Below, in pieces: positions 7,379 to 15,431 of a DNA stretch of 32,000 bases. Under the pieces are notes generated by a model that did no database searches, had not been told where the DNA came from, and saw nothing but the letters and a program-made list of their open reading frames with translations. The translations under genes were made by a program, and so were the position numbers. Position 1 is the stretch's first letter. Each line of letters starts with the position of its first letter. This DNA is from Haloferax volcanii DS2 (GTDB lineage: Archaea; Halobacteriota; Halobacteria; Halobacteriales; Haloferacaceae): contig NC_013966.1 of NCBI RefSeq assembly GCF_000025685.1, positions 120,001 to 152,000 of the forward strand, written 5' to 3'.

Positions 7379-7678
7379 CTGTGACGCCCATAACTCGGCT
7401 TCTTTCGCACTCGGACCAGTCAGCACCACGTGCTCTGGGGCACGGAATACAGCTCGGTCTCTTGCGTCCCATGCTTGATTCACGCTCCGCAGGGATAGCA
7501 GAATTTCCATCAAGTCAGCACGGCCGCAGCAACCTCACTGAGTACTGTCAGAAGCGACGTGCAACAGACAGAGAACTTCTCTTTATCATTATATTGGGAT
7601 TGCCACCAGAGCAGTTTGTCATGACACGGATGGCTGGTCACAACAAATATATTCGTAGAGCGATTATCTCCGGTTACC

Positions 7679-7990
7679 ATGGCAACAAACAACGACAAAA
7701 TCCAGTTTAGGGGGGCTGACGAGAAGCGTGCAAGTCAACGCCTCAGTGAGATGCGTCTGGGAGGGATTAACATCAGTGAACTCGCTCGAGAGGGCCTCAA
7801 GGAGAAGCTTCGGGAAGTACTCTCGAATGAAGAGCGAGTCGAGTTACACCAACAGTACCTCGACGGAGAACTGGACGAAGGCGTTGCAGAGATCCTCATC
7901 GGCGATCTGCTCGAGGATATCGAACGAGAACGCGAGGCAGTCGGGAAGGCGGAGACGCTCAGTACCGATGGCGTCTTCCAGAACAAGTAA
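7679..7990 (+). CDS. Putative antitoxin (RHH-like N-terminus with a UPF0175-like C-terminal part)
   Basis: 103 aa. GINISELAREGLKEKL resembles a ribbon-helix-helix helix, and YLDGELDEGVAEILIG resembles the UPF0175 motif. The ORF ends 3 nt before the PIN-like ORF. Confidence 0.55.
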   Translation: MATNNDKIQFRGADEKRASQRLSEMRLGGINISELAREGLKEKLREVLSNEERVELHQQYLDGELDEGVAEILIGDLLEDIEREREAVGKAETLSTDGVFQNK

Positions 7991-7993
7991 CGA

Positions 7994-8602
7994 ATGGGCT
8001 CAGACGAGATACGGCACCCTGTTCTTGTAGATACTGACGCACTCATTTCTGTCGCAAATACATCTCTGTGGCCGAAGGTTGTAGGCAGCCTTAATCTGAC
8101 GACGACGAACGTCTGTATTCATGAGTTGAAGCGACACACCCGCGACAAGTCTGAATATGCGCCTGACGGAAGCCGTCAAAAGTGGATTCACGATGGGAGT
8201 GTAGCGGCACTCGAACCGTTTGAAGACACCTCAAACACGGCGTTTACCACAATCAATAGCGTTCCCCGGCCGCACGGACCAGACGCTGGAGAACAGTCGT
8301 TAGAACAAGAACTCGAACAGCACCCAGAAAGCTACACGTTCGTCGTTCTCATGGATCAGAGAGGTCGAGAATCGATAAACCGAGTCTTCGAGGAACGAGA
8401 CGAATACGGTGTCGCAGTCGCTCCCTCCTATCTGCTCTACTTACTCCACAAGAACGGCAACTGTTCGAAGCAGGAATTCTGTGAGGCGTGTGGAGAGCTT
8501 CTGGAGGGTGAGGGGTGGACAAGCTACAGTGCGATACAAGCGATTTGGCAGGAAATCCCGATTGACTGCAGTTCGTACTTAGATGGAAACCTATTGCCCT
8601 GA
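7994..8602 (+). CDS. PIN-like nuclease toxin (COG2405/DUF3368-type by motif), unusually long
   Basis: 202 aa. It has the N-terminal acidic strand VLVDTDALISV, then DAGEQSLEQE, VVLMDQRGRESI and YLLYLLHKNG. This order matches the D...GE(A)E...DD.kaR...GT.gvL pattern of DUF3368 PIN-like proteins (from memory). Confidence 0.55.
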   Translation: MGSDEIRHPVLVDTDALISVANTSLWPKVVGSLNLTTTNVCIHELKRHTRDKSEYAPDGSRQKWIHDGSVAALEPFEDTSNTAFTTINSVPRPHGPDAGEQSLEQELEQHPESYTFVVLMDQRGRESINRVFEERDEYGVAVAPSYLLYLLHKNGNCSKQEFCEACGELLEGEGWTSYSAIQAIWQEIPIDCSSYLDGNLLP

Positions 8603-8772: not shown

Positions 8773-8889
8773 GCGTGCTCACCGGGGAGTAACCCGCTCG
8801 CTTCGTGTTGGAGTGGTTCTGAATATGAGATTTTCATTGGTCTACGACAATCTCCAATCTAGTTAATACTTTGGCTTGTGCAGGAGTGG
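8769..8889 (-). promoter_or_regulatory. Second copy of the integrase-upstream block, including a 22-codon leader ORF (8769-8837)
   Basis: Leader ORF MKISYSEPLQHEASGLLPGEHA*, whose stop overlaps the remnant GTG (GTGA). The conserved boxes at 8833-8843 and 8864-8889 match 4227-4237 and 4259-4284. Confidence 0.4.
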
Positions 8890-8982
8890 CAGATACACAA
8901 CCGCAATTAGTAAATGACGAACTGAGGCGGCAATATAACAGTAAATCACATATTGCTATACAAAATGTGGCGGGGATCTGGA

Positions 8983-9200
8983 CCACAGTTTCGGAGGATG
9001 GGTTCTGTTGCGTGCCTTATTTTCACGTCAATTGAGTTTGATTAGGCTCTCGTCTATCGGTTTTCGAATTTAGTATGGTGAGAGACTTTGGAAAGATTTT
9101 CTGAGTGATATGAAATACAAATCGACAGACTGCTCCTATTTCACAGCTACGAGCGAAGAATAGAAGGCACGCAACACTTCCATCCTCCGAGGTTGTGTGG
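8983..9200. mobile_element. MITE-like element (218 bp) with ~35-bp imperfect terminal inverted repeats
   Basis: Left arm ccacagtttcggaggatgggttctgttgcgtgcct (8983-9017); right arm aggcacgcaacacttccatcctccgaggttgtgtgg (9165-9200). The interior is AT-rich. ORF 9023..9277 inside and across it is probably spurious. Confidence 0.5.
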
Positions 9201-9222
9201 AACCCCACAGTTTCGGGGGAGG

Positions 9223-9347
9223 GGCTCTGTTGAAACCCCCTTTCCGTCTGGCGACTTGTTGAGAGACTAGTTTTCACTGTGACCCACGGAAACTAGCCAG
9301 AAAGAGCGCTCCCTCCAATGTCAACGCTGAAGGATTTCAACAGAGCC
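9223..9347 (+). mobile_element. 125-bp MITE, copy A
   Basis: Terminal inverted repeats ggctctgttgaaacc and ggatttcaacagagcc. It is near-identical over its full length to copy B at 9837-9961, with about 10 substitutions by eye. Confidence 0.7.
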
Positions 9348-9485
9348 GGAGGAGATTATTTTTGCGTTTTTCTAGGGCTTTTCGTGGTTCGGGCAGGCCA
9401 TATCGGTGTCGCATCAACTACCGCCCTCGGTGAGGATGGAGTATGGGCGTTAATTTTAATACAATTAACTGAGTGTCGTTATAAT

Positions 9486-9731
9486 ATGGATACCCCTCCA
9501 AGAGACTTCATGCTTGGGCGGTCTAGTGCATGGTCTAGTAAGTTTGAATTGTTGGCTGTTTCGCTACTTGGTCTTGCCATCTCTGCAGTATTATTAGGTT
9601 TTTTTGACATTGCCTCACCAAACTCAATTGTTAAACTGCTCTATTTCCTAATTACCTACTTGTCACTATTTAGCATATCCATATTTACTACATACTTCGT
9701 GGCATATCAATTCGGCATTGGACGTAAATGA
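9486..9731 (+). CDS. Small two-TM membrane protein (81 aa), hypothetical
   Basis: An internal ATG of ORF 9318..9731; the ORF-track start lies inside MITE A and is unlikely to be real. MDTPPRDFMLGRSSAWSSKFELLAVSLLGLAISAVLLGFF...LLYFLITYLSLFSISIFTTYFVAY shows two hydrophobic helices. Low-GC codon usage. Confidence 0.4.
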   Translation: MDTPPRDFMLGRSSAWSSKFELLAVSLLGLAISAVLLGFFDIASPNSIVKLLYFLITYLSLFSISIFTTYFVAYQFGIGRK

Positions 9732-9836
9732 TAAACATCGAATTGTTATAAGATTGTACATTTGGTACTGTCCAAGACCAGCAAATCCGTGTCGCGGGAT
9801 TCTGCTCGCGAATCGTTTCGAGACACTCGAAAATCT

Positions 9837-9961
9837 GGCTCTGTTGAAACCCTCTTTCCGTCTTGCGATTTGTTGCGAGACTAGTTTTTACTGTGATCCA
9901 CGGAAACTAGCCAGAAGGAGCGCTCTCTCCAATGTCAACGCTGAAGGATTTCAACAGAGCC
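9837..9961 (+). mobile_element. 125-bp MITE, copy B
   Basis: Same termini (ggctctgttgaaacc and ggatttcaacagagcc) and same orientation as copy A. Confidence 0.7.
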
Positions 9962-10086
9962 AAAATCTATTCTTTCGTCTGATTCTCTGGGAAGTTCACC
10001 ACGTTTTGACCGTTGAGTGCGTGAAATCTGACCGCTAGTTCGTCAATCAGAACCAGCAGTCGTTCAATATGCGGATGATCGACGTG

Positions 10087-10401
10087 TCACAGGCTGGTCG
10101 AATTGTCCCATAGTTGGGGATGTGACACGTCAAAAAACCGACGACGTATCACCGTCCCCACCGTCCATTCGAACATCGTCGTCAACTGTCCACCGTCATT
10201 TAGACGCGAGAGACGTCTCGGATGCAGAATCGAGTAGGATAACCCGAGGTTCCGCAAGACTGTACTGAAATCGTCCAGATGGTACTGGACGTTAAACTCC
10301 TCGTTGAGTAGATGTTGCATCTCCTGTGATTTCCACGACTGGCCATCGCGGAGGAGTTCGAGCAGTTGGTTGAGCTATTCTTCGGTAAGATACCAAGCCA
10401 T
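10087..10401 (-). pseudogene. IS630-family transposase remnant (in-frame stop, internal deletion, truncated)
   Basis: Own translation from the ATG at 10401: MAWYLTEE*LNQLLELLRDGQSWKSQEMQHLLNEEFNVQYHLDDFSTVLRNLGLSYSILHPRR... This is the HTH part typical of IS630 transposases. It then jumps to GTVIRRRFFDVSHPQLWDNS, which resembles the first-Asp region (g.FfDes.pq). Only about 100 codons remain. Confidence 0.5.
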
Positions 10402-10649
10402 ATCTGTCTCACGATCTTTGCTTATTGGTCACCTCTAACGCTCTAGCCCCAAACTTCTCTCAAGTACTATTGAGGCTGATATCGACGAGGATATTAGGGA
10501 TTTCACTCAGCAGATCGATACATTTCAGTACGACTCATTGAGATAGACCCAGAGACAGTGCAACGATACGTGGGCGTAGTCAACAAATCTGCACCCTCTT
10601 GGGGACAGCGACTTGCTTCGGCCACCAACTACATTTTAGCAAACATGAT

Positions 10650-10707
10650 GGCTTTGCCCGTGGAGCGGGAGTCTTCGACATGGAACATCGCCGATCTCCC
10701 GCTTCAC
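10650..10707 (+). repeat. Orphan fragment resembling the 5' end of the IS5-like element at 11889-11962
   Basis: ggctttgcccgt, gagcgggag and atctcccgcttcac parallel ggctttgaccgt, gaagcgggaaat and atctcccgcttcac. The 14-nt atctcccgcttcac is exact at 10694-10707 and 11949-11962. Confidence 0.35.
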
Positions 10708-10758
10708 CTTCTTACTACTCGAAACCGGCGCCGTGATTCACTAGAGCCCTCAAGTTAA

Positions 10759-11637
10759 TTAGATTGTATCCAGTGCAAGTACGTGGTTGCCGGCATCAAC
10801 GTCTACCTGATACATCTTACCCTTGTCCATTGTGGTCCAAGTTCCGCTCCCGAAGATAATCATCTGTGGCGCACAGTGACCTGCTCCACACAAGTCAAAG
10901 TCGTATGCCCCGAAAGTAAGGATATTTGAATCTTTGAGATGGTCCCAAGCGTACCCAGCAAGGGCACCAACGACTGCGCCCCCAAACGCTGTCGCAATAG
11001 CGCCAACTCCACTAAATGAACCTGCAATTAGTCCACTAGCTGTTCCAATGAGTCCCCCGATCGCTACTTTAGTTAAAGTATTGATATCGTCATAATACTC
11101 AACCGATGCACCAACAATTTGATGCCTACCATAACCAGAGTAGACATTACAACTCTGATTTTGATCTCCTTTGTAAACGCTAAACCGGCTGATTGTCTTG
11201 GCCACCCCGTCACTGACTTCCTCAATGAGGTCGTCCCACGCCGACTTCTCCTCGAAATTTTGGACACCAATTGTGTTGGTCTTTTCGACCGTATCCGTTT
11301 TAGTTCCGTAAACCTTCACCGATTCCACGCTCATCTCAACTCCCGATTCCGCGCTCATTTGGGATTGAGTCGCTTTTGCGTTTTCCTTTTTCACCGTTGC
11401 GACTAATTCACTTACCTCTCCCGTTTCTGTATTCTTGGCGCGTGCGAAACTGTAGACCGTATCATCGATAACAGCGTGTTTTTTATCCTCAAGTTCAATC
11501 GGAGCGGGATCTATCGAGGAATCAGAACTCTTTTCACTACCGTGTTTTTGAGCTGAAACGATTCCAGTCGTTGACGAAACGCCGATTGCTGTACCTGCAA
11601 TGCCGAGGAACTGGCGTCGATTAGGCTTTTTCACCAT
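10759..11637 (-). CDS. Tat-signal secreted protein with a glycine-zipper hydrophobic segment (function unknown; candidate halocin-like or membrane-active toxin)
   Basis: 292 aa. The twin-arginine motif NRRQFLGIAGTAIGV is followed by VSAQ. Residues 191-229 (VAIGGLIGTASGLIAGSFSGVGAIATAFGGAVVGALAGY, nt 10951-11067) form a run of GxxxG/AxxxG repeats. The C-terminal ~60 aa contain CGAGHC. The gene is clearly lower in G+C than the flanking high-GC genes. Confidence 0.75.
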   Translation of the reverse strand: MVKKPNRRQFLGIAGTAIGVSSTTGIVSAQKHGSEKSSDSSIDPAPIELEDKKHAVIDDTVYSFARAKNTETGEVSELVATVKKENAKATQSQMSAESGVEMSVESVKVYGTKTDTVEKTNTIGVQNFEEKSAWDDLIEEVSDGVAKTISRFSVYKGDQNQSCNVYSGYGRHQIVGASVEYYDDINTLTKVAIGGLIGTASGLIAGSFSGVGAIATAFGGAVVGALAGYAWDHLKDSNILTFGAYDFDLCGAGHCAPQMIIFGSGTWTTMDKGKMYQVDVDAGNHVLALDTI

Positions 11638-11939
11638 TACATTCCTAAATGTAATTGGTCTAACTTATACTCTTTGATTTGTTTTTCGTATGTCACTACT
11701 AGTTAGCACCTTCACCAGTTTCAACTGAACTTTGTAAACATGAATTGAGGTGAACGGCCGTACTGGGGCAAGCCTTGAACGAAGGGACTCTTCGCGTGGT
11801 TATTCCATCACAAAATGGACTCAACATCAGCATTCGACAGGCAATGATTTTTCAAACTGCTTGGCTTTGTGAATCACTATACGGCGTCGGCTTTGACCGT
11901 TAGAACTTGGAAGATGAAGCGGGAAATCGGCGATGATCT

Positions 11940-12671
11940 ATGTCGAAAATCTCCCGCTTCACGAAGAAAGCGGTCACGTTAGCTAAAAATGTTGTTGGTG
12001 GCCGAGGCGAAGTCGCCGCCCCCGAGGAGGGTGGCGGCTTCGCCGACTACGCTCTCCTGTCGCTACACTGTCTGCGGATTTACCTCGATGAGTCGTACTG
12101 CAACGCCCTCGATCTGCTGAGCGAAATGCCGCATATTTGTGGGGAGATCGGCCTCGCAGAGAGCGATCTCCCTGATCACTCAACGCTAGTTAAGGCGTTT
12201 AACAGGTTTCAGATGAAGGTCTGTCGAGTGCTGCTCCGACTCTCGTCGGAGCTGCACGACCTCTCGGGTCACGCCGCCATTGATGCCACCTTTTTCGACC
12301 GCGAAAACGCTAGCAAGCATTACTGCCGTCGCACGAATCACCGCGTTCAGACACTCAAAGCGACGGCTCTCGTCGATACAGAATCTCAAGCTGTTCTTGA
12401 TGTTCATTGTGCGACCGAGAAAACCCACGACATGCCCCCGAAGAGCGAGGGCCAATTCTCAACAGTTTGCGGATGTTCCTCGAAACGTGTCCGACGACGG
12501 GTGGCGACATTTAACTTAGTGAAGAAGTCGTCGAGTCGTGTTGTAGTTCTCACAGAGTCATTGCGGTCAGTTGTGAGGAGTCTGGTGAACGTCTTTTCGA
12601 ACACCCACTTCCGGATTCGGAGTAGTGTTTTAGGGATTACCCCAACACATTTCGGTTTTCGCTCGGCTTAG
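11940..12671 (+). pseudogene. Truncated or degenerate IS5/IS4-superfamily (ISH-type) DDE transposase
   Basis: The first ~170 aa look genuine (PDHSTLVKAFNRF..., GHAAIDATFFDRENASKHYCRRTNHRVQTLKATALVDTESQAVLDVHCATEKTHD, i.e. the first-Asp region). The remaining ~70 aa are low-complexity and unlike a transposase. The second Asp and the Glu region are missing. Confidence 0.6.
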
Positions 12672-13405
12672 AGCGCCAACTACCACAACCTCAGGGGATG
12701 GTTTGATGCGTGACGTTCAGTGATTGGTTGTGTGATCTAACACCGAAGCTAGTAGCAGACAAGTGCCACAGAACTGAGTAACACCCTTAGACTCGATAGA
12801 TACTCGGGAATAATTCTCTGATCGTATAGCTACCGAGACTTGGCATCTAATAATCAAGTCTGAGGTACAGTTACAACATTACTACCGTCATAGAATATGC
12901 GTGGTATAGTACAATATATAATATGTTGACACTTGGAACCAGGTCATATCTCCAAGACACAATTCTAATTTACTAACAATACTACCTAGTTGCTTAATTG
13001 ATAAATCCGTTCGGTCATGAGCGTAAATAACTGTATCACACAGTCAGGTCTCGTCACACCTCAGATATAATTGATAGAAAGAATCTTATTTACAATATAT
13101 TTGTACAGAGATCCCACTTATTTAGTTGTATGCCTCGATTACCCATAGGAAAAATCACATCATTTGACTAGTCTGTTATCGGACAACAATCACGGCACAA
13201 AGTCACTATCTACCAGATTATAGTACGCATATTATACAATATTGCTGGCTCAGAGTGTGACTGCAGTTTCATTGAACGCAATCTGATTCACCTAAGCCGT
13301 CACAAAAACCGATAATTGCACTAGTCAATCTAACCGCTGCTATCCGAATAAGCGCTGGTGCTGCTGTCCAATACATTCAATACATCTTAGTACATCTAAT
13401 ATACT
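12672..13405. other. ORF-free AT-rich tract (~730 bp)
   Basis: The six-frame track shows no ORF of 60 aa or more. Sampled 60-nt lines are roughly 35-40% G+C by hand count. Short motifs recur: tatagtac (12906, 13220) and tacaatat (12910, 13091, 13235). Confidence 0.6.
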
Positions 13406-13768
13406 ATGCCCATCAGCGCGGATCGCTTCGAGACCATTGACGACGGCAATGAAAACCCAAAACCGGGGACGAACGCCTACAAGCTCCTCTCGTTCTTAGC
13501 TCAGAATGCTGACCAAGCGTTCACCCAAAGCGAGATCGCCGAGCGGACGTCCGTCAAGCCCGGCTCGGTTGGTCCGACTCTCGTCAGGCTCAGAGAACGA
13601 GGTCGTGTCGAGCACCGGGGGACATACTGGCGCGTGAGTGACCACGTCTTGAGCCTTGACGCTGCAGCTAACCATGCTGCTGCTACAGCAGCGAGCCGTG
13701 AAGAAGAACCATTCGACTACGACGAGTGGCAAGAACACGCCGTTGACCCGCGACAACAGCGTGACTGA
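13406..13768 (+). CDS. Winged-helix (MarR/ArsR-like) DNA-binding protein, putative antitoxin
   Basis: 120 aa. NAYKLLSFLAQNADQAFTQSEIAERTSVKPGSVGPTLVRLRERGRVEHRGTYWRV is a typical wHTH. The 3' end overlaps the next ORF by 8 nt. Confidence 0.7.
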   Translation: MPISADRFETIDDGNENPKPGTNAYKLLSFLAQNADQAFTQSEIAERTSVKPGSVGPTLVRLRERGRVEHRGTYWRVSDHVLSLDAAANHAAATAASREEEPFDYDEWQEHAVDPRQQRD

Positions 13769-14105
13769 CACCAACCGCTTCCAGAAGGGCGACGTATTCT
13801 GGGCACCGGATCCATTTCGACGCGGGTCAAATCCACGCCTCTGGGTCGTTCTTGCTGCAGACTCGCTCCCGTATCCTGGCGAGGAGTATCTGGGTGCAGC
13901 TCTCACAACCAGTAATCTCCCGCGAAACTTCGAAGTTGGAGATGAGTGGGTGAGCGGCAAAGACCCGGCCAAGACCTCGTATTGCTCTCCATGGGTCGTC
14001 GCGACAATCAAACATGACACCGTTGTCAATCCACAAGGACAAGTGACCGAGTCATTCGCCGACGAAATGATTGTAGCGTGCAAGCAGTATCTCGGCCCCC
14101 AGTAG
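13761..14105 (+). CDS. MazF/PemK-like toxin
   Basis: GTG at 13761, in frame with ORF 13656..14105 and overlapping the upstream stop (gtgactga). KGDVFWAPDPFRRG..RLWVVLA...ALTTS...SYCSPWVVATIKHDTV...G.V is the PemK/MazF SH3-like pattern. 114 aa. Confidence 0.7.
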   Translation: MTDTNRFQKGDVFWAPDPFRRGSNPRLWVVLAADSLPYPGEEYLGAALTTSNLPRNFEVGDEWVSGKDPAKTSYCSPWVVATIKHDTVVNPQGQVTESFADEMIVACKQYLGPQ

Positions 14106-14122: not shown

Positions 14123-15070
14123 TCACCTACGTGCTTCACACAACGTCTGGTAGTGCGTCCGAATTGTTTGAGTTGAGGTATCACTCACGGCCGCAACACG
14201 CGCCTGCGTGAGCGGCCAGTCCCGCTCAGTCGCAGCAGTGTACACACACGCTGCCGCGACTGCATGCGGATTCGCACCCCGATGAGCCCACTCATCGCTC
14301 GATGTCTCAGCTAACGACCGTGCTCGTCGTCGAACCTGGTCTGTCACATCAAGCGCATCTGCCACTCGCGGAACGAACTCGGCCGGTGCAACTGGCTTCG
14401 CAGACAGCCCGAGTTCTATATTGAGTGCGTTATACGCTGACCGGACACGCGATTCAGCCACCCGTGCGAGCGGGATGAGTTCAGCGAGCGTCCGCGAAAG
14501 CCCCGCACATCGACAGGCGGCGTGGACGCTCGCAGCCGCGACTGCTTCAATCGATCGTCCGGGCAACAGATCCGCCTGCTGAGCAGACCGGAAACACCGG
14601 CATGCTTGGTCACGCAGGCTGTCTGGGAGGTCGAGCGCACCGATGAGTCGCCGGACTTCGTCCAAGCCATGCGCGAGTCGACGTTCACGACTCGACTGGT
14701 ACCGACTCCGACTGTGCTGGGTGCGAAGTCGGGAGAGTTGCTGTCGTCTTTCGCCCGGGATCGGTGTCCCGTTCGCGTCGACGTGTCGGCCGATATTGGT
14801 CGCGAGGCCGTGGTCGTGTCGGGTCGGCGTTCGTGGTGCACCTACTCGCTTGCGCTCCTTGCGCTCGAACGACCGCCATTCGGGACCGTGGTCGATGCCG
14901 TGCCCGTCGATGATGAGCCCACACGACTGGCACCGTCGCTCACCAGCGTCCGTAATGACCTGGCCGCCACACTCCGGACAGGAGGCGGGTCCACAGGATT
15001 TCCCGCACGATTCGTCGAACTGTCGCTCGTAGACATCTCGTGTCGCCATCTCGAACACCGCGCGACGCAA
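14123..15070 (-). CDS. tfb: Transcription initiation factor IIB (TFB) paralog
   Basis: N-terminal zinc ribbon CPECGGQVITDAGERRCQSCG, then the B-linker (GPEWRSF...RVGAP) and two cyclin-like repeats. TTG at 15070; the more likely start is the ATG at 15049 (MATRDVYERQF). Confidence 0.9.
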   Translation of the reverse strand: MRRAVFEMATRDVYERQFDESCGKSCGPASCPECGGQVITDAGERRCQSCGLIIDGHGIDHGPEWRSFERKERKRVGAPRTPTRHDHGLATNIGRHVDANGTPIPGERRQQLSRLRTQHSRSRYQSSRERRLAHGLDEVRRLIGALDLPDSLRDQACRCFRSAQQADLLPGRSIEAVAAASVHAACRCAGLSRTLAELIPLARVAESRVRSAYNALNIELGLSAKPVAPAEFVPRVADALDVTDQVRRRARSLAETSSDEWAHRGANPHAVAAACVYTAATERDWPLTQARVAAVSDTSTQTIRTHYQTLCEARR

Positions 15071-15073
15071 TTT

Positions 15074-15106
15074 GGTGCGCCCCGCACCCGTCAGGGGCCA
15101 AAAAAC
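15074..15106 (-). promoter_or_regulatory. T-run plus GC-hairpin motif, copy 1 (upstream of tfb)
   Basis: Minus strand: tgttttttggcccctgacgggtgcggggcgcac. It lies 3 nt upstream of the TTG and 24 nt upstream of the ATG of tfb. Confidence 0.55.
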
Positions 15107-15431
15107 ACGGTTGCTGTCTCGAACAAGCAGGCTTCTCTTGGGGGGTCGTTAAATGACTGAACCACAACACCAAACAGGCTAGCAAGTGGATTATCGTTGC
15201 AGGCTCGTCGTGTCACATAAGACGCGCCCTGTTCTGCAACGGGTGCGGAATCGCGTACCAAGCCATCCGCGCTCGCCCCTTGATAACTCCCTCGTGGGCC
15301 TCGTGCCCACCGAGTTTCGTACACTCGACACTCAAGTTATTGGATATCTGTGGGTTGCGAGTCGCGGACTGTGTTAGTCGGAATTGCTCACCAAGCGAAC
15401 AGTTAACTGAAGCAACATATAACTGTCTTGT

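Follow-up and report, generated by a model that had tools for sequence, protein, structure and literature searches.

What does the glycine-zipper protein HVO_A0133 of the archaeon Haloferax volcanii DS2 do, and does it act alone? The question is raised by a 32,000-nucleotide stretch of the plasmid pHV4 (NC_013966.1, positions 120,001 to 152,000; this whole stretch is referred to as the window, and its own coordinates are used below), in which the open reading frame (ORF) 10759-11637 on the minus strand encodes, from an ATG start, a precursor of 292 residues. An exact-sequence look-up identified the product as ADE02190.1 (D4GQG3_HALVD) of H. volcanii pHV4, and D4GQG3 carries the locus tag HVO_A0133 in the proteomics supplement of PMC12240190. 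The gene is already annotated, under the NCBI name 'glycine zipper family protein', and has been mentioned in passing as encoding a secreted protein; its existence is not new. The protein recurs in the secretome and quorum-sensing literature without an assigned function (PMC11821415, PMC12240190, PMC13464002). An initial annotation of the window, made from the sequence, regarded it as a candidate halocin-like toxin with no obvious immunity gene beside it. In this study, we found that the genes of the HVO_A0133 family are, at the loci that could be examined, strictly paired with a gene for a small membrane protein with two transmembrane (TM) helices, and we tentatively propose that the two form a toxin-immunity pair.

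The partner gene in the window is as follows.

9486-9731, plus strand: HVO_A0131A (A0A1C9J6T7), 81 residues with two TM helices, conserved partner gene and candidate immunity protein.

This ORF, which exact look-up identified as HVO_A0131A, had been seen in the initial annotation and set aside, and the accompanying statement that no obvious immunity gene is adjacent did not survive the survey of homologous loci for small membrane genes that the same annotation had recommended. The homolog in Halomicrobium katesii is adjoined by a two-TM gene of 84 codons, the product of which is 33% identical to HVO_A0131A (E 4e-14). We then surveyed every fetchable locus and counted those in which the family gene is intact and sufficient flanking DNA is available (n = 15); in all 15, the zipper gene is accompanied by a gene for a protein of 65-85 residues that has a short polar N-terminus and is predicted to form two TM helices. 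The two genes are separated by 13-230 bp in 14 of the loci and by 1,028 bp in the window, where the gap is filled by an insertion sequence (IS) stump, a transposase fragment and an element resembling a miniature inverted-repeat transposable element (MITE). The background frequency of such two-TM ORFs in these loci is 0.069 per kb, which corresponds to approximately 0.03 expected within 250 bp on either side of the zipper gene per locus; a partner found in 15/15 loci cannot be incidental. HVO_A0131A and HVO_A0133 are convergent, like the H. katesii pair, and the orientation of the pair is constant within clades: the HVO_A0133 clade has convergent or divergent pairs, and in the longer clade both genes point the same way. 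By sequence, the partners form several subfamilies, and the most closely related zipper proteins have related partners too (44% identity between the partners of loci L008 and L020, in addition to the H. volcanii-H. katesii pair).

Among the loci examined, no zipper gene without a partner was found, and partner genes were found beside zipper genes that had been truncated or were missing. Three genomes of the Halomicrobium mukohataei type have a clean deletion of 892 bp, by which the zipper gene lost its promoter and its first 226 codons; its last 59 codons and the whole small gene were left. The metagenomic contig L033 carries an independent 5' truncation of a clade-B zipper gene, with an intact partner 43 bp downstream. 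Two contigs possess orphan partner homologs, 58-63% identical to HVO_A0131A, beside the gene for ribosomal protein S10 and with no zipper gene nearby; their ratios of nonsynonymous to synonymous substitution rates (dN/dS) relative to HVO_A0131A are approximately 0.3-0.4, and the two differ from each other by too few substitutions for an informative ratio. Two independent metagenomic contigs share one variant of the zipper gene (L034 176-1066 and L037 2513-3403), in which an aberrant C-terminus, IVVAVSLFRVDRTPIVRSHR, replaces the conserved tail with its invariant His; this is either a frameshifted pseudogene or a true variant, and an intact partner lies 178 bp downstream. Partner genes are also duplicated. 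In L035, two paralogs lie in tandem behind one zipper gene (1425-1658 and 1807-2040); they are 45% identical to each other, and their closest matches, at approximately 75% identity, are the partners of two different loci. L007 has a fused duplicate with twice two TM helices (1131-1595). The tandem and the fusion look like an immunity array. These patterns of loss and gain, small in number, are signatures expected of a toxin-immunity module.

We then examined the architecture of HVO_A0133, which is predicted to be exported by the twin-arginine translocation (Tat) pathway and comprises the following parts.

10759-11637, minus strand: HVO_A0133 precursor, 292 residues, predicted Tat-exported glycine-zipper protein.
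11551-11637, minus strand: twin-arginine signal peptide, residues 1-29, from the sequence and the RR motifs of the family, with a putative cleavage site.
11068-11550, minus strand: N-terminal part of the beta-rich ectodomain, residues 30-190, from the AlphaFold model and the alignment.
10951-11067, minus strand: glycine-zipper helical hairpin, residues 191-229, from Pfam Gly-zipper_Omp (residues 193-231) and the AlphaFold model.
10762-10950, minus strand: C-terminal part of the ectodomain, residues 230-292, from the alignment and the AlphaFold strands 239-282.

The N-terminus, MVKKPNRRQFLGIAGTAIGVSSTTGIVSA followed by QK, contains a canonical twin-arginine motif (N-R-R-Q-F-L), a hydrophobic core (h-region) and an AXA-type site between VSA29 and Q30, which together give the protein, judged by its sequence, the architecture of a Tat substrate. 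The Pfam model TAT_signal matched HVO_A0133 alone weakly (E 2.3) and two family members at 7.8e-5, and RR motifs recur over the family alignment. Export has been seen in supernatant proteomics (PMC11821415), and the motif suggests that it proceeds by the Tat route. Inspection of the sequence revealed no lipobox Cys in or after the signal peptide, the first Cys being C163, and neither a lipid-anchor motif nor a C-terminal anchor motif is present. The AlphaFold model is beta-rich, with a predicted local distance difference test score (pLDDT) of 71.8 and a predicted template modeling score (pTM) of 0.70. In the N-terminal part of the ectodomain, where the model places strands in residues 47-112 and 142-181, a variable region (residues 85-130) is followed by a conserved block with near-invariant C163, H172 and G176. 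The zipper segment, VAIGG...ALAGY, is an uncharged run of 39 residues, VAIGGLIGTASGLIAGSFSGVGAIATAFGGAVVGALAGY, consisting of two helices of approximately 14-18 residues with GxxxG/AxxxG faces and no charged residue; Gly-zipper_Omp matched it in HVO_A0133 with an E value of 0.003 and 17.9 bits, under the curated cut-off of 25. In the model, the zipper helices (190-207 and 220-233) are inserted between strands 172-181 and 239-251, so that both ends of the hairpin would emerge on the same side of one domain, and strands 239-282 continue the strands preceding the hairpin. The C-terminal 63 residues hold CGAGHC, an LKDSNILTF block and near-invariant K235, D236, D246, S264, G265 and H285. The twin-arginine signal, the 39-residue glycine zipper and the CGAGHC motif of the C-terminal domain, all pointed out in the initial annotation, were thus borne out.

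The family is tiny: an exhaustive phmmer search of 1.84 billion representatives yielded 21 clusters at E <= 1e-3. All members that could be placed, in named genomes and plasmids, are haloarchaeal, and those from metagenomes look haloarchaeal, being acidic and having RR signals. A tblastn search of plasmids brought in further copies, on megaplasmids of Halomicrobium salinisoli, Haloferax lucentense, Haloferax alexandrinus and strain DL31, a genome scan yielded H. katesii only, and no member was found in viral contigs or in a first Joint Genome Institute (JGI) metagenome scan. The genes lie on megaplasmids or beside IS elements. They are rare, sporadic accessory genes and not the widespread core-genome envelope genes that the initial annotation had named as the finding to look for against a toxin. 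The family alignment displays a variable N-terminal region and two conserved blocks on either side of the zipper; mean column identity is only approximately 29%, the near-invariant positions are those given above and G220, and the CxxxxC pair is retained in most members and lost in several. Gly-zipper_YMGG was matched by 5/20 members (best 6.8e-8) and Gly-zipper_Omp by 5/20 (best 1.8e-7). Two members matched Pfam TraT at 2e-4, and the Prokaryotic Genome Annotation Pipeline (PGAP) calls one homolog 'complement resistance protein TraT'; these matches are weak, and the glycine-zipper stretch is their likely cause. Profile and structure searches, likewise recommended initially, thus recognized the zipper in family members and matched no solved fold: Foldseek with the AlphaFold model found no resembling solved or viral structure, a phmmer search of PDB sequences with HVO_A0133 found nothing, and the family profile gave just non-significant, zipper-only PDB matches, to SlyB (E 0.41) and an OmpA-family protein (E 0.29). 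Pfam and NCBIfam at E values up to 10 returned only weak glycine-zipper, Tat-signal and similar families and no halocin or bacteriocin family, and none of the Pfam, NCBIfam, PDB sequence and Foldseek searches indicated an enzyme or binding family.

Published proteomic data bear on both genes. In a study of tat-fimbriae, HVO_A0133 was identified almost in its full length, at 83% coverage, in a culture supernatant that had been subjected to two spins at 142,400 g, concentration and a spin at 265,100 g, after which the protein remained soluble (PMC11821415). It was found in four gel bands, from which the authors infer heterogeneous processing, and they describe it as confined to few haloarchaea (PMC11821415); the 83% coverage was reached in a single band. 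Its retention in the 265,000 g supernatant argues against the hydrophobic segment being a plain membrane anchor (PMC11821415), an alternative raised in the initial annotation. In conditioned medium, HVO_A0133 is among the most induced proteins (log2 fold change +4.60, p 1.8e-7, approximately 24-fold), together with substrate-binding proteins and siderophore genes, and HVO_A0131A was detected by mass spectrometry with a log2 fold change of -0.01 (PMC12240190 and its supplement). HVO_A0133 is also upregulated in the late-log phase, is described as highly abundant and is abundant in ordinary cells including rods (PMC13464002). HVO_A0131A is thus made constitutively, and HVO_A0133 is induced by cell density.

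The reading that we favor, with reserve, is that HVO_A0133 and HVO_A0131A constitute an antagonism cassette, in which a Tat-secreted, density-induced, membrane-inserting toxin is accompanied by its cognate membrane immunity protein. We advance with a little more hesitation the wider proposal that the pair founds an unrecognized haloarchaeal toxin-immunity family, the toxin being quorum-induced, soluble and of a new fold and killing neighbors through its zipper hairpin, and the immunity gene also occurring as an orphan. After Tat export, the precursor would be cleaved between VSA29 and Q30, and the folded beta-rich ectodomain would shield the uncharged 39-residue hairpin and thereby keep the protein soluble. 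The variable N-terminal part may bind the envelope of a neighboring haloarchaeal cell, whereupon the hairpin would enter the cytoplasmic membrane and self-associate via its GxxxG faces into an ion-conducting pore, collapsing the membrane potential. The two-TM protein would bind the hairpin in the membrane and block its oligomerization, which would protect the producers as well as cells that possess only the small gene. Several observations speak for such a cassette: the adjacency in 15/15 loci, the clade-stable layout, the remnant, orphan and tandem partners, the soluble secretion despite a hydrophobic hairpin, the uncoupled expression of the two genes and the distribution of the family as accessory genes. 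By analogy, the glycine-zipper pore formers CdzC/CdzD and Tse4, which have multipass membrane immunity proteins, may serve as a precedent (PMC5380434, PMC10434224).

Other observations weigh against a toxin. The typical members of the Pfam glycine-zipper families are not toxins but outer-membrane lipoproteins of bacteria such as SlyB, and the best, albeit non-significant, PDB sequence matches are of the same kind. The near-invariance of C163, H172, D236, D246, S264 and H285 hints at an enzymatic or metal-binding role of the ectodomain, for which the pore model has no need. Co-divergence of the zipper protein and its partner amounts to no more than a trend (Mantel rho 0.26, p 0.07). One-way decay is also predicted by target size, because the zipper gene is approximately four times longer, and retention of the small gene in Halomicrobium says little about selection because the deletion is recent (flanks approximately 99% identical). 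No published antagonistic activity of HVO_A0133 was found in the literature searched, and H. volcanii DS2 is used mostly as a halocin-sensitive indicator strain. Moreover, the only strain in which soluble HVO_A0133 was found over-expressed foreign Tat substrates and a signal peptidase, and the soluble form was not seen in the vector-free control (PMC11821415).

Among the explanations that compete with a toxin-immunity pair, the one that survives best, although we consider it rather unlikely, is that HVO_A0133 serves as a harmless protein in the producer's own envelope. Its zipper hairpin would anchor in the cell's own membrane and might oligomerize in a SlyB-like manner to stabilize or organize the membrane at high density, with the two-TM protein as a partner or assembly factor. 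The match of the hairpin to the Pfam families of outer-membrane lipoproteins, the nearest PDB sequences, the abundance of the protein in ordinary cells including rods (PMC13464002) and its induction by density or stress, which recalls SlyB, agree with this explanation, and the AlphaFold model, if correct, places the hairpin within one beta domain with both ends on the same side, as an anchor requires. However, retention in the supernatant after spins at 142,400 g and 265,100 g, at 83% coverage, is unexpected for an integral membrane protein, and HVO_A0133 has neither a lipobox nor a fold match to SlyB. The level of the partner does not track the 24-fold induction, odd behavior for the subunits of a stoichiometric complex; an assembly factor would not readily account for tandem and orphan partners; and a rare, sporadic, plasmid-borne distribution is ill-suited to a general envelope function.

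It is improbable, in our view, that the ectodomain is an extracellular enzyme or a metal- or ligand-binding protein that uses C163, H172, D236, D246, S264 and H285 and is tethered or regulated at the cell surface by the hairpin and the small protein, with a role in nutrient acquisition, signal processing or surface exclusion during mating. The near-invariance of these polar residues against the low mean column identity of the family would be accounted for, as would the fact that conditioned medium also induces substrate-binding proteins and siderophore genes (PMC12240190), and the TraT name of one homolog and the two Pfam TraT matches point in the same direction. Nevertheless, no enzyme or binding family emerged from the searches, the TraT matches are weak and probably caused by the zipper stretch, the CxxxxC pair is lost in several members, and the obligatory two-TM neighbor and its duplication would be left unexplained. 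Very improbable is a single-gene precursor like that of halocin C8, cleaved after export into a toxin (the C-terminal ~100 residues with the zipper and the Cys tail) and a neutralizing N-terminal part, with the small gene incidental: size and export route resemble those of ProC8 (283 residues, Tat-exported; bioRxiv 10.64898/2026.07.27.741052) and the four gel bands were ascribed to heterogeneous processing, but most of the mature chain travels together in one band, the AlphaFold model would assign the strands on either side of the hairpin to a single domain, no HalC8 domain was matched, and a neighbor in every locus cannot be incidental.

Comparison with known systems places the proposed toxin-immunity pair closest, by analogy of function, to a glycine-zipper toxin with a membrane immunity protein, from which it would differ in its Tat route, its new beta-rich carrier domain and its archaeal host. 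CdzC and CdzD of Caulobacter crescentus are, like HVO_A0133, secreted glycine-zipper proteins that are strongly induced at high cell density, and their immunity protein CdzI, a small cytoplasmic-membrane protein with multiple TM helices encoded in the same locus, parallels the two-TM partner (PMC5380434). The Cdz proteins are peptides of approximately 85 residues that are exported by a type I secretion system (T1SS), remain aggregated on the producer surface and act in a contact-dependent manner, and they have no homology to HVO_A0133. Unlike them, HVO_A0133 is a folded, predicted Tat substrate of 263 residues with a beta-rich ectodomain and was found soluble, and its locus contains a single candidate toxin gene and no dedicated transporter genes. 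Ssp6/Sip6 is a type VI secretion system (T6SS) effector pair with a glycine-zipper pore former. [quoted passage not shown] Tse4, Ssp6, TelE and EsxX belong to contact-dependent injection machines of bacteria and have no homology to HVO_A0133, and some immunity proteins are soluble (TipE), whereas the delivery of HVO_A0133 would be by simple Tat secretion in an archaeon.

Among halocins, HalH4 (halocin H4, encoded on Haloferax mediterranei pHM300) shares with HVO_A0133 an RR signal, Tat export, a size of approximately 300-360 residues and a megaplasmid location, and it is considered membrane-active (bioRxiv 10.64898/2026.07.27.741052). It contains an internal uncharged hydrophobic stretch, FALARDGVTLALTALNPAMGSLALGATYFL; both proteins have such a stretch of approximately 30-40 residues, a resemblance of architecture only. 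HalH4 has no glycine zipper, and its neighbor is a lipoprotein-like gene of 135 codons instead of a two-TM gene. Comparing the family profile with HalH4 (L029 14111-15187) by hhalign gave a probability of 0.2% and an E value of 0.27 over 20 columns, i.e., no homology, and tblastn of plasmids including pHM300 gave no H. mediterranei match at E <= 1e-3. The lipoprotein-like gene itself (L029 15191-15598, minus strand, on pHM300; Tat-lipoprotein-like N-terminus MHRRTLIVSGLTAIATIVTGC) faces halH4 in convergent orientation, its end lying 1 bp from the halH4 stop codon, and its product could be a partner or immunity protein for halocin H4. The halocin C8 precursor ProC8, comprising the HalI immunity protein and the HalC8 peptide, is likewise a Tat-exported precursor of 283 residues with a Cys-containing C-terminal region (bioRxiv 10.64898/2026.07.27.741052). 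In ProC8, toxin and immunity protein are cleaved from one polypeptide, whereas the candidate immunity protein of HVO_A0133 is encoded by a separate membrane protein gene, and HVO_A0133 matched no HalC8-type family in Pfam or NCBIfam at E values up to 10. On sequence grounds, HVO_A0133 lies outside every known halocin family, in agreement with the initial remark that no sequence similarity to halocins was seen.

SlyB and the Pfam glycine-zipper clan (Gly-zipper_Omp, Gly-zipper_YMGG and Rick_17kDa_Anti; PF13488, PF13441 and PF05433) share with HVO_A0133 a two-helix GxxxG hairpin coupled to a beta-rich domain, and the NCBI name stems from this zipper similarity. SlyB-type proteins are bacterial outer-membrane lipoproteins with a lipobox, whereas HVO_A0133 has no lipobox and has an AXA-type signal peptidase I site; its hairpin lies inside the beta domain in the model, whereas the SlyB-type hairpin precedes it, and Foldseek detected no fold match. 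We know of no partner gene for SlyB. As for the halocin-like toxin that was initially proposed, membership of a known halocin family did not hold, whereas the idea of a secreted, membrane-active antagonist is partly supported by distribution, solubility, induction and the partner gene. The Tat motif, which had been taken as a pointer to halocins, is present; it is weak evidence, because most haloarchaeal secreted proteins use Tat and its use is therefore uninformative.

The halocin genes known so far are few, and for the best known of them, that of halocin H4, work on H4 mutants has reportedly called into question the connection of the gene with the activity. If correct, the toxin-immunity proposal would mean that Archaea, too, have a pore-forming toxin system based on a glycine zipper, the first of its kind there, and that the main archaeal model possesses a halocin amenable to genetics; the density-induced pair would tie the newly described archaeal quorum-sensing response to competition between cells, and the recurrence of HVO_A0133 in secretome and quorum-sensing datasets would be explained. 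The glycine-zipper pore principle, known from the bacterial T1SS, T6SS and T7SS, would be extended to Tat as a third export route and to a second domain of life. Even if the toxin idea is wrong, the strict pairing with a tiny membrane protein offers a testable handle on the function of both genes.

The transcription of HVO_A0133 would start from the following region.

11638-11860, minus strand: HVO_A0133 upstream region, with a TATA-like TATAAG at 11664-11669.

The TATA-like box precedes the ATG by approximately 28 nt, a spacing compatible with a leaderless mRNA, and an AT-rich box (9450-9463) is found at a comparable distance from the start of HVO_A0131A. The small RNA sRNA168 (HVO_A0133s) has been mapped to pHV4 131765-131909 on the reverse strand (PMC3956466). 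Assuming an offset of +120127, it would correspond to 11638-11782 in the window (minus strand, 145 nt), and sRNA362 (HVO_A0137s; pHV4 135199) would correspond, by the same offset, to 15072-15213 (plus strand). We infer this offset because sRNA168 then abuts the start codon of HVO_A0133 and sRNA362 lies 2 bases from the start (15070) of the ORF for a transcription factor B (TFB). The sRNA168 region would then include the TATA-like box of HVO_A0133, and the published sRNA168 deletion probably silences the gene; if the offset is correct, the viable deletion strain (PMC3956466) is without the HVO_A0133 promoter. An Rfam search over 9000-12200 returned nothing, the 145-nt leader folds no better than shuffled sequences (z -0.14), and HVO_A0133 is absent from the published transcription start site and RNA-seq supplements examined.

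The DNA around the pair contains several mobile-element remnants.

10472-10741, minus strand: 5' end of an ISH28-like IS5 element, present as a degenerate, truncated copy in inverted orientation, from repeat search and alignment.
11861-12671, plus strand: ISH28-like IS5-family element, left end and decayed transposase ORF (11940-12671), from megablast and a partial DDE_Tnp_1 match.
9223-9347, no strand assigned: MITE-like element of 125 nt, copy 1, upstream of HVO_A0131A, with terminal inverted repeats.
9837-9961, no strand assigned: MITE-like element, copy 2, between HVO_A0131A and HVO_A0133, 94% identical to copy 1.
10087-10320, minus strand: transposase-type winged-helix ORF fragment, from a weak Pfam HTH_33 match (E 0.005).

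The initial annotation had described IS-end fragments and a 20/22 inverted repeat around the gene. The repeat is real and larger (38 nt at 89%, 10674-10711 versus 11910-11947), forming the core of approximately 270 bp of inverted homology (10472-10741 versus 11869-12155, approximately 75-80% identity by repeat search and pairwise alignment), and the left fragment is an inverted 5' stump of the ISH28-like IS5 element on the right. Megablast matches to elements annotated as 'IS5-like element ISH28 family transposase' begin at 11861-11864, and the decayed ORF 11940-12671 has a partial DDE_Tnp_1 match (E 5e-6). HVO_A0133 and 223 bp of upstream DNA (10742-11860) are thereby bracketed by two IS left ends, the left stump terminating 17 bp past the HVO_A0133 stop codon, between the zipper gene and its partner. 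An active composite transposon was considered and rejected, given that the left copy is a diverged stump of approximately 270 bp without an outer end. The guanine-plus-cytosine (GC) content is 0.465-0.48 over HVO_A0133 versus approximately 0.58-0.62 in most of the window. The low-GC island described initially is thus present at the gene, but the tract is approximately 5 kb long (about 8800 to 13600) and extends beyond it.

The two MITE-like copies flank HVO_A0131A and have terminal inverted repeats of 16-18 nt (GGCTCTGTTGAAACC...GGATTTCAACAGAGCC), and a 7-bp target duplication, AAAATCT, flanks copy 2. Further copies, unannotated and 74-94% identical, are present on 19 haloarchaeal plasmids of 10 genera, and the 125-nt element looks like an undescribed MITE. 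Upstream of the pair, a DUF8065-like ORF (7673-~7990) is followed by a PIN_13 nuclease-like ORF (7994-8602), both within 7673-8602 on the plus strand and resembling a toxin-antitoxin pair. Homologs of these two ORFs (52% and 39% identical) are also found 1.7-1.8 kb upstream of the zipper homologs in L008 and the DL31 plasmid (L020), and this recurrence suggests a shared mobile island. On the other side, the deepest GC trough of the window (12801-13200, 0.36) lies just past the decayed IS5 element, accompanied by an 18-nt inverted repeat pair (12891-12908 and 13219-13236). Beyond it, a MarR-like helix-turn-helix gene (13406-13768; HVO_A0135 by the proteomics list) overlaps a 149-residue ORF (13656-14105), and a plasmid-borne TFB paralog (14123-15070, minus strand; TFIIB, E 4e-35), for which we saw no link to the zipper pair, comes next; extra TFB copies on pHV4 are known.

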